Shown here in pieces: positions 18,234 through 20,148 of a stretch of DNA of 28,737 nucleotides (position 1 is the first letter of the stretch; every line of letters starts with the position of its first letter). The stretch lies in assembly GCA_964359435.1 (NCBI GenBank), contig CAYHSY010000002.1:1-28737 (forward strand), given 5' to 3'. Under the pieces are notes generated by a model. The model worked only from the letters and a program-made list of their open reading frames with translations. It made no database searches and had not been told where the DNA came from. A program made the translations under genes and the position numbers. The stretch is from an uncultured Candidatus Saccharibacteria bacterium (GTDB lineage Bacteria > Patescibacteriota > Minisyncoccia > UBA6257 > JAUSGH01).

Positions 18234-19127
18234 ATGAAAAATATCATTTTCATCGGGGCCGGTAAAATCGGTACGGCAATCGGCGTGGCTCTTCAAGCCA
18301 AGGATTTATGTTTGGCCTTTTGGGATAAAGATCCGTCAAAGGTGCGGGAACCTCAAGACTTGAAAGTTTTGGTTCCAACCGCCGACTTTTTGTTTTTCTG
18401 CGTGCCGAGTTGGGTGCTCCGCGATGCGGTTAGAGAAGTTTCCCCGTTTATAAAAAAAGGCACCATAGTCATCTCGCCGTCTAAAGGCATTGAGATAGCG
18501 ACTAACAAATCAACGGATGAAATTTTGCGTGAACTTCTGCCGGCGGGCGTTGAGTTTGCTTTACTCTCCGGCCCTATGCTCGCCGACGAGATTTGTAAAG
18601 GCAATCTCGCGGCGGCGGTCGTGGGCACGGAAAAAATCGAAACTTACCAAAAAATTAAAGAACTTTTCATCGGCACCAACCTAAAAGTTGAGCACTCCGC
18701 GGACATTCACGGCGTTGCTCTCGGTGGTATTTTTAAAAATGTCTACGCGCTCGCGCTCGGTATGGCGGAAGGGCTGGGGTGGGGGAGCAACGAAAAAGGC
18801 ATTTTGGTTACCAAGGCCGTAGCCGAGATGCAGGCAATTTTCAAACTTTTGGGCGGTCAGCCGGATACGGTTTTCTCCGTTGCCGGTCTCGGTGATTTCA
18901 TCGCGACGGGTTTCAGTTCTTGTTCCAAAAATTATACGGCCGGCCTTGAGCTCGCCCGCGATGGCGCGGCAAAGACTAAGAGCGAGGGGTTGTCTTCATT
19001 CGATTCGGTAATGGCGCTCTTGGGCGAAAATCTTTCCCGTTTCAAACTGCTCTCGACTATAAAAGAAGTCGTCGTTGATCAAAAACCCGCCAGCGAGGCC
19101 TTTACCTGCTGGGCCGGAAATTGCTAA
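18234..19127 (+). CDS. gpsA: NAD(P)H-dependent glycerol-3-phosphate dehydrogenase
   Basis: IGAGKIG Rossmann motif, SPSKGIE, LSGPMLADE, GGIFKNVYALALG, GLGDFIAT..SKN. Confidence 0.9.
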   Translation: MKNIIFIGAGKIGTAIGVALQAKDLCLAFWDKDPSKVREPQDLKVLVPTADFLFFCVPSWVLRDAVREVSPFIKKGTIVISPSKGIEIATNKSTDEILRELLPAGVEFALLSGPMLADEICKGNLAAAVVGTEKIETYQKIKELFIGTNLKVEHSADIHGVALGGIFKNVYALALGMAEGLGWGSNEKGILVTKAVAEMQAIFKLLGGQPDTVFSVAGLGDFIATGFSSCSKNYTAGLELARDGAAKTKSEGLSSFDSVMALLGENLSRFKLLSTIKEVVVDQKPASEAFTCWAGNC

Positions 19128-19152
19128 CGCAACTTCATGGAGCAGAGATTTA

Positions 19153-19192
19153 TTCCTCCTTTCTTAAAGGAGGTGGCGAAGCCGGAGGATTT
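19153..19192. repeat. REP-like palindromic element
   Basis: CCTCCTTT-CTT-AAAGGAGG hairpin (19155-19173) followed by TGGCGAAGCCGGAGGATTT. Confidence 0.5.
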
Positions 19193-19267
19193 TTTCTCTA
19201 CTTGCGCTAACCACGGATAAATGTTAACATCTAACTGTTCCTATCAGTTCTTTGAAAGGGTCTAACA

Positions 19268-20020
19268 GTGGAAGCCCCCAAACCTTGGAAGCTCCGATTT
19301 TCCCTGCGCCAGCTCTTCGTGTTCGTCGTTTTCCTGTCCTTCATTCTTTGGGCCATTTTCCAGCCCGAAAAGTACGAGCGCGAAGAAGTCGTTTCAACCT
19401 ACGGCTATCCGCCCGAATACCGCATCAAGCCCATCGACGAACAGATCGCCATTCTCAAACAGCATTTCCCGAATCTTATATCCGTGGATATATCAGTGGC
19501 TTCGAAGCCTTTGCCTGCGGGCGCCGAAGGATACTTCGCCATCCCGAGGTGGCAAAAGATCGCCCCGACCTATGCGCAGGCAGTGGACAAGGTTTTGGAT
19601 GCTATAATGCAAAGACGCGTGTTATGGGGTAGTGCCGCCGGACCTGTCCTGGAAACCGCCAAAAAATCCGACAGCATTTCGCAGATTTCACGAAACCAAA
19701 ACACCCCCAACATCCTCATCGTGCCCGCTCAATTCGGCCTCCGCCATCGCGGCCGGTCATTTAGGCGAGTCCGTGCCGTGATGGGCTATCGCGAGTTCGG
19801 ACTCGGCGCTTACGAAGTCAGCATAATGCTTCTTGCACATCCAGAAAGGTTGGGATGGTCTAGTGGTTTGTTATGGATCACTTGCGCCGGTGACGCCGAT
19901 GGCGGCTTCTCGGTCGCGCCGCTCTTCAGCTTCGGCGGCGGCGAGGTCGGGTTCGGCGCCGTCTGGTGCGGCCGCGCCCACGAGTACTGCGGTTCCGCGT
20001 CGGCCTTCCTCTCGCAGTAA
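19268..20020 (+). CDS. Probable DGR target protein (N-terminal TM anchor, C-terminal variable region)
   Basis: TM helix at aa 13-31; YGYPPEY..KPIDEQIAILKQHFP, PAQFGLRHRGRS, EFGLGAYEV, HPERL; ends APLFSFGGGEVGFGAVWCGRAHEYCGSASAFLSQ; 3' end has 8 A in 137 nt. Family resemblance to CPR DGR targets is from recall. Confidence 0.75.
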   Translation: MEAPKPWKLRFSLRQLFVFVVFLSFILWAIFQPEKYEREEVVSTYGYPPEYRIKPIDEQIAILKQHFPNLISVDISVASKPLPAGAEGYFAIPRWQKIAPTYAQAVDKVLDAIMQRRVLWGSAAGPVLETAKKSDSISQISRNQNTPNILIVPAQFGLRHRGRSFRRVRAVMGYREFGLGAYEVSIMLLAHPERLGWSSGLLWITCAGDADGGFSVAPLFSFGGGEVGFGAVWCGRAHEYCGSASAFLSQ

Positions 20021-20051
20021 TTGAGGCTCGATCCCTTGAGAGCTCGATCCT
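19881..20051 (+). other. Putative DGR variable region plus downstream IMH-like tandem repeat
   Basis: 19881-20017 is about 74% GC with 8 A and is dominated by NNC codons; TTGAGGCTCGATCCC/TTGAGAGCTCGATCCT tandem at 20021-20051. Confidence 0.7.
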
Positions 20052-20118: not shown

Positions 20119-20148
20119 TACAGGCTAATTCGCACGAATTAGCCTGTA
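20119..20148. repeat. Hyphenated palindrome, copy 1 (14-2-14)
   Basis: TACAGGCTAATTCG-CA-CGAATTAGCCTGTA. Confidence 0.9.

Follow-up and report, generated by a model that had tools for sequence, protein, structure and literature searches.

A gene for a 250-aa protein in the window (by which we mean the whole stretch of 28,737 nt that was analysed, contig C2 of its genome) ends in a DGR variable region (VR) whose 23 mismatches over 124 nt to a matching template repeat (TR) all fall at TR adenines, and the TR in question comes from other organisms. The original prediction that this gene is a DGR target is therefore upheld, and we consider it probable that the gene is a recently orphaned DGR target that is now fixed. 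It is set apart by its orphan state combined with a letter-perfect VR, by a transmembrane (TM) anchor and by a 5-codon deletion at the edge of the TR homology. The features of the gene and its surroundings are as follows.

19268 to 20020, plus strand: ORF of the orphan DGR variable protein, GTG start, TAA stop, 250 aa
19304 to 19360, plus strand: N-terminal transmembrane anchor, residues 13-31 (Kyte-Doolittle 2.26; AF2 helix 13-30)
19367 to 19894, plus strand: conserved family body, residues 34-209 (alignment of 26 homologues), which with the VR forms a predicted alpha/beta C-type-lectin-like fold
19894 to 19895, plus strand: junction where 15 nt (5 codons, EFAPD) are missing in comparison with the family (alignment of 26 and DNA of metagenome relatives)
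19895 to 20018, plus strand: variable region, collinear with the family TR over 124 nt and differing from it at 23 TR adenines and nowhere else
19991 to 20014, plus strand: constant adenine-free 3' VR segment (GS ASAFLS), IMH-like, identical in TR and VR
20021 to 20050, plus strand: 16-nt tandem repeat (period 16, 1.9 copies, 93% match), remnant of a conserved YCTTGR-repeat element
20119 to 20148, plus strand: terminator-like hairpin and then a T run, before tgt

The GTG start is preceded by AAGGG. In the 137 nt before the stop codon (19881-20017) there are 8 adenines (5.8%) at 73.7% GC, compared with 22.5% A and 53.8% GC in the remainder of the gene, and this is the lowest A count among all stretches of that length in the 28.7-kb window; the A-poor 3' end with about 74% GC that had first drawn attention to the gene was thus confirmed. 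About 30 other stretches of the genome have 10 or fewer A (or T), so A-depletion alone is not unique, and a check of the A- or T-poor stretches for hidden VRs found, apart from the known VRs, none that was VR-like at the end of an ORF. The runs of NNC codons and the invariant-looking residues between them, which had been read from the single sequence, coincide with the variable and the scaffold columns of the 26-homologue alignment. No family was matched in a Pfam scan of the protein, no paralogue was found in its own genome, and RT, Avd and TR are all absent from the 28.7-kb window, so that the target stands alone there, as had been proposed. The N-terminal membrane segment was also recovered, as the hydrophobic helix listed above; it carries charges of +4/-1 before it and +2/-4, an acidic stretch, after it. 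Because the positive charges precede the helix and the acidic ones follow it, the positive-inside rule predicts an N-in, C-out topology with the rest of the protein outside the cell. The 5-codon deletion lies between GAC/GAC direct repeats, exactly at the 5' edge of the TR homology.

The origin of the VR was traced by searching metagenome contigs with its own scaffold bases and N at the variable positions, which gave 11 loci. Five of them (L118, L119, L122, L125 and L126) carry a TR that matches 19895-20018 over 124 nt.

L118, 3070 to 2947: matching TR
L119, 3469 to 3592: matching TR
L126, 101 to 224: matching TR
L122 and L125: one matching TR each

Against these five TRs the VR has 23-24 mismatches, every one at a TR adenine, and none at the 94 other positions. 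Compared with L119:3469-3592, there are 16 A>G, 4 A>C and 3 A>T changes, and 7 of the 30 TR adenines are kept; these 30 adenines occupy codon position 1 (12) or position 2 (18) and never position 3, and 17 codons are changed. The match is specific, as the next best TRs differ from the VR at 1 and 3 non-adenine positions and the median over 44 TRs is 18, the range for cognate pairs being 0-2. Next to each matching TR there is an ordinary target of the family, and a DGR RT follows about 450 nt downstream. The contigs that hold the five TRs have no other DNA in common with the genome under study, from which it follows that they belong to other organisms. Since all VR-TR differences are at TR adenines and none of the 94 other positions has changed, the VR is a genuine DGR product that was last rewritten recently; judged by the literature criterion for non-adjacent targets (PMC5758913), 19895-20018 is the product of an L119-type TR. 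A 30-mer of the constant 3' VR segment is also present in high-depth contigs of other organisms from the same samples.

The TR itself varies little among these cassettes. It is identical at 124 of 124 positions between cassettes whose adjoining 1.2 kb (spacer and RT) is 86-87% identical, and 96.8% identical where the flank is 80% identical (the copies compared were L118:2947-3070, L119:3469-3592, L126:101-224 and L121:4974-5097); the non-coding TR is far more conserved than the neighbouring RT gene.

The gene belongs to a family of more than 1,600 homologous proteins, nearly all of about 289 aa, from Paceibacteria-type Patescibacteria, with matches at 47-52% identity over 86-98% of the length (E = 1e-61 to 1e-51). 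In the alignment of 26 the body is well conserved and the last ~45 residues alternate between scaffold and variable positions. The invariant scaffold (CAGD..ADG.FS.AP.F.F..G.V.F.A.W...A....GSASAF) is present in the 250-aa protein, and the variable positions of the family take N, D, G, S, Y, H, C, F, R or V. We sampled 83 loci, 80 from reference genomes and 3 from assemblies; a DGR RT lies within 1-2 kb of the target in 37 of the 83, and a TR was found in 40, differing from the terminal ~131 nt of the homologue at 11-29 positions, all TR adenines. RTs and adenine-only TRs at such frequencies mark this as a genuine DGR target family, with the VR precisely at the place first proposed for it. Its distribution is patchy, since it is absent from a same-genus genome and from 54 of the 60 relatives searched. 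In the other 43 loci the TR is absent within 10 kb, and the VRs there are mostly no less canonical than in TR-bearing members. The first two homologues examined (L010 and L011/L012) had no TR within 10 kb, and a whole-MAG search of two more TR-less relatives (G001 and G004) revealed no matching TR; in two of the four MAGs of TR-less relatives (G001-G004) an RT is entirely absent.

In nearly every family member the stop codon is directly followed by a conserved array, about 55 nt long, of octamer-like YCTTGR repeats, behind which a GC hairpin usually lies. Scored with an HMM of this element, all 40 TR-bearing loci reach 10 bits or more (median 35.6) and 13 of the 43 TR-less loci stay below 10 bits (Fisher p = 9e-5); the score after the gene of the 250-aa protein is 3.1 bits. 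The imperfect tandem repeat that had been noticed after the stop was confirmed at 20021-20050, and we identify it as the first unit of the element, tandemly duplicated, the rest being gone. In the genome under study this HMM also picks out the sequence immediately behind VR2 (34 bits) and behind its C25 paralogue (27 bits), and YCTTGR arrays, built of 8-nt repeats over about 55 nt, are located as follows.

C6, 8746 to 8805: YCTTGR array
C31, 8665 to 8718: YCTTGR array
C25, 12839 to 12892: YCTTGR array
Homologue loci L011-L092: YCTTGR arrays directly after the stop codon

Within that genome, 60-nt stretches with at least four YCTTGR motifs occur only after VR1 and VR2. The array follows the VRs of at least three different target families and not their TRs. 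Because the IMH-like segment is identical in TR and VR, discrimination between recipient and donor needs a downstream mark; the YCTTGR array may be the recipient-site mark of Patescibacteria DGRs, and the flank element is presumably needed for homing. Bordetella phage BPP-1 has, in addition to the IMH, a GC-rich inverted repeat, or cruciform, behind its VR (Guo et al. 2011, PMC3240598). The YCTTGR element resembles this cruciform in that it is found after VRs and not after TRs, and so is placed to mark the recipient; unlike the BPP-1 inverted repeat, it is a ~55-nt array of 8-nt repeats, a putative mark of which the orphan gene has only a remnant. We found no published description of a YCTTGR array after VRs in a limited literature search.

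The VR appears much younger than the rest of the gene. Identity to homologues at third codon positions is 37% in the body, where it is saturated, and 73-83% in the VR. The closest relative, P0002 (locus L010), is surrounded by an identical arrangement of genes (HMA ATPase, gpsA, target, tgt, HTH, queA) with neighbours that are ~75% identical, shows the same TM N-terminus and retains the EFAPD segment that the 250-aa protein has lost; among the 120 best of the >1,600 family members, these two proteins are the only ones with a TM anchor. The shared gene order indicates that the target sat at this locus before the two lineages split. The VR of P0002 has decayed: its identity at third positions is down to 44%, its aligned codons contain 15% A and 15 residues are inserted; the locus is also without the flank element. 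On this comparison, our copy has evidently been rewritten from a canonical TR much later than its split from the P0002 lineage, and the absence of any change at ~30 effectively synonymous scaffold sites points to a recent last homing event. In a same-genus reference genome, gpsA and the target are both missing between the flanking genes.

The genome is Patescibacteria-like, 847 kb in 87 contigs with 100% marker completeness. A search of it for a template and an RT had been suggested. As to the RT, three of DGR type lie on contigs C6, C31 and C13, each with a bona fide TR/VR pair and each with a different small target protein.

C6, 7844 to 10606: resident DGR (target, TR, RT)
C31, 8322 to 10372: resident DGR (target, TR, RT)
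C13, 6230 to 8575: resident DGR (target, TR, RT)

The resident pairs, which were identified by small-word BLAST, show 21 (C6), 19 (C31) and 18 (C13) mismatches at TR adenines, the substitutions are strongly biased to A>G (19 of 21, 12 of 17 and 15 of 18), and the C31 pair also has a few non-adenine differences and a 3-nt gap. An Avd-like gene adjoins RT1, and a TR-less paralogue of the DGR2 target is located at C25:12843-13118. As to the template, neither BLAST of the VR against the 847-kb assembly nor an ungapped adenine-tolerant scan of the whole genome, in which every placement gave at least 47 non-adenine mismatches per 166 nt, found a matching TR.

Metagenome evidence for the gene consists of Logan contigs (2-5x depth), in which minority variants would not be visible. 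One of these, from run X4 of a different study (2025), spans 19859-20009 with one difference, and another, from run X1, joins the unique gene body to 19950 with no difference; contigs break within the VR in three runs (X1, X2 and X5). Assembly of a chimeric VR from abundant relatives was considered and rejected, as independent low-depth contigs connect the unique gene body with 19950 and 19992 with the unique DNA behind the gene, and also cover 19859-20009. An exact 39-mer across the lineage-specific deletion junction had no match among JGI metagenome contigs. Only one sequence makes up the 90% protein cluster of the 250-aa protein, which leaves the record without VR variants.

We therefore favour, as the probable history, that of a target orphaned recently and now fixed. 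The gene would encode a membrane-anchored protein with an extracytoplasmic C-type-lectin-like domain. Mutagenic retrohoming of TR cDNA has written its last 124 nt (19895-20018) from a TR type conserved across one Patescibacteria target family, replacing 23 of the 30 template adenines, all at codon positions 1 and 2, and altering 17 codons. The cognate TR-RT cassette would since have gone from the genome, and the VR flank, a conserved element in all active-looking relatives, has been cut down to its duplicated first unit. With the cassette gone and the flank reduced, the VR would now be fixed and the orphan target kept as an ordinary gene for one binding variant. This history places the cassette as truly lost and not merely unassembled, and the variable domain presumably faces outward and binds a ligand. 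It had been allowed at the outset that the gene might be a fossil target, and this fallback lies nearer to the evidence (no TR in the assembly, a truncated flank), but the fossil would be a very young one.

The history just given has to be weighed against continued diversification by a cognate TR-avd-RT cassette at a remote site, unassembled or unbinned, which we regard as unlikely. As the assembly is in 87 contigs and DGR loci assemble poorly, such a cassette could sit in a gap or in an unbinned contig, and remote DGR targets are documented (Wu et al. 2018, PMC5758913). The unchanged scaffold (0 of 94 against the family TR) would fit ongoing homing as well as it fits recent loss, contigs of three runs break inside the VR, and about half of the family members lack a TR at the locus yet hold canonical VRs; because relatives that are without both element and TR mostly have fresh VRs, loss of the flank may not mean inactivity. 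Against this, marker completeness is 100% and three other DGR cassettes were assembled intact with their VRs; the flank element, a feature of all 40 TR-bearing loci, is truncated here; a sample of another study has the same VR apart from a single change; the single-member 90% cluster offers no VR variant; and whole-MAG searches of two other TR-less relatives found no TR. More speculatively, TR-RT cassettes may be gained and lost, or be horizontally mobile, and rewrite orphan targets when they are compatible; the gene would then be waiting for the next visit, with the YCTTGR flank as its recipient mark. A TR that is near-invariant across species, together with the half or so of the targets that are TR-less yet canonical, leaves room for this reading, which we hold to be distinctly unlikely.

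It is improbable that the VR was imported, that is, that recombination or gene conversion brought in the 3' end of the gene from an already diversified target of a relative. In favour of it, the same samples contain abundant relatives (90x to 1100x) whose VRs belong to this TR type, the gene body is among the most divergent of the family while its VR is among the most canonical, the 15-nt deletion lies exactly at the 5' edge of the VR, and the family is patchy (found neither in the same-genus genome nor in 54 of 60 relatives). However, no sampled VR is close, the nearest differing at 6-14 adenine-derived and 6-17 other positions; the sequence after the stop is not the intact flank of a relative; and no other DNA is common with the relatives' contigs. 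Finally, diversification in trans by one of the resident DGRs (C6, C31 or C13) is highly improbable, for although three intact RT/Avd/TR cassettes are present and their VRs show the same A>G-biased spectrum, local alignment of the VR with the three resident TRs and VRs gave a best TR score at noise level, homing needs TR-VR homology where the adenine-tolerant scan found at least 47 non-adenine mismatches per 166 nt, and the resident RTs are no closer to the family-linked RTs than to each other (46-48%). The original proposal that the target is diversified in trans was accordingly not sustained: the assembly has no cognate TR, none of the three resident TRs aligns, the flank is truncated, and an independent study yielded the same VR with one change.

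The fold of the variable domain was examined on an AlphaFold2 model built from a 26-sequence alignment (pLDDT 78, pTM 0.77). Foldseek of the model against the PDB returned nothing meaningful, and the family profile had no match among PDB sequences. A VIA-align search of 48,161 chains gave a top 50 made up almost entirely of CLec/FGE-fold proteins aligned over residues ~76-250 with Z of 4-6.4; for this predicted model, the individual values were Bd2740 6.4, PvdO 5.7, TvpA 5.5, Lcl 5.0, Mtd 4.0 and TaqVP 3.8, and VIA-align matches are safe alone only at a higher Z (8) than the best obtained here. Matches among AFDB clusters were mostly unnamed, with FGE-sulfatase-like and DUF1566 entries. The C-terminal domain thus probably has a C-type-lectin-like fold, an assignment that is held at this level because the Z scores are modest. 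A CLec fold had been anticipated; the VIA-align list of CLec/FGE proteins, which includes TvpA, Mtd and TaqVP, speaks for it, but the empty Foldseek comparison with the PDB and Z values of at most 6.4 keep it at probable. As in Mtd (1YU0), TvpA (2Y3C) and TaqVP (5VF4), with which the predicted domain at ~76-250 aligns, the VR is predicted to make up the last strands and loops. In contrast to these three proteins, the domain is linked to them by a predicted model at a Z of only 3.8-5.5, with no sequence similarity and no PDB match by Foldseek.

There is ample documentation of CPR DGRs and of their small targets without domains (PMC5758913, PMC8144416), and the family described here is one of the documented CPR DGR target families. 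Like the CPR targets of clade 2 (PMC8144416) and of the 'CPR set' with ungrouped or UVR-class VRs (PMC5758913), the protein is small and its function is unassigned; it also shares with CPR targets a C-terminal VR that runs for ~125 nt up to the stop, differences to the TR at adenines only and AAC-rich TR codons, and, as in CPR DGRs, RTs of ~320-350 aa lie beside the targets of its relatives. Unlike those targets, it is an orphan gene without an adjacent or matching TR, Avd or RT in its own genome assembly, and it departs from its CPR family in that a TM anchor replaces the soluble N-terminus of ~80 aa, 5 codons are deleted at the VR edge and the VR flank is truncated. It is comparable to remote targets such as the TvpA paralogues of Treponema denticola and those of Legionella, which are far from the RT and are recognised by adenine-only TR differences (the criterion of Wu et al.); whereas the TR of the Treponema denticola and Legionella targets lies in the same genome, the matching TRs here are found only on contigs of other organisms. 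Roux et al. 2021 (PMC8144416) describe CPR clade-2 DGR targets as typically without TM domains and ask whether CPR variable proteins act at the cell surface; the 250-aa protein bears on this question, as an explicit membrane anchor is rare among CPR targets.

The gene offers a clean, datable case of what becomes of a DGR target after the retroelement leaves, with a letter-perfect VR, a missing cassette and a decayed sister copy. In addition, an orphan VR can be assigned to its TR type even without a genomic TR if metagenomes are searched with adenine-tolerant patterns. Two observations may be of use to DGR researchers, namely the repeat element that follows VRs across target families and the conservation of the TR far beyond that of the RT gene.

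The surroundings of the gene also vary. In the same-genus locus L113 (G005:C20), positions 1294-2751 hold a gene for a 390-aa Glu/Leu/Phe/Val-dehydrogenase-like protein and a small membrane protein on the other strand. Because L113 has these different genes in place of gpsA and the target, the block from the DoxX-like ORF to tgt is a variable spot. BLAST of the RT regions also brought up short dispersed repeats of ~40-100 nt, which occur in both orientations on many contigs, among them 19124-19200 of the window and C6:4884-5005 (the C6:4890-4984 family is one example); among the read contigs, some of high depth that come from other organisms overlap 19124-19177.
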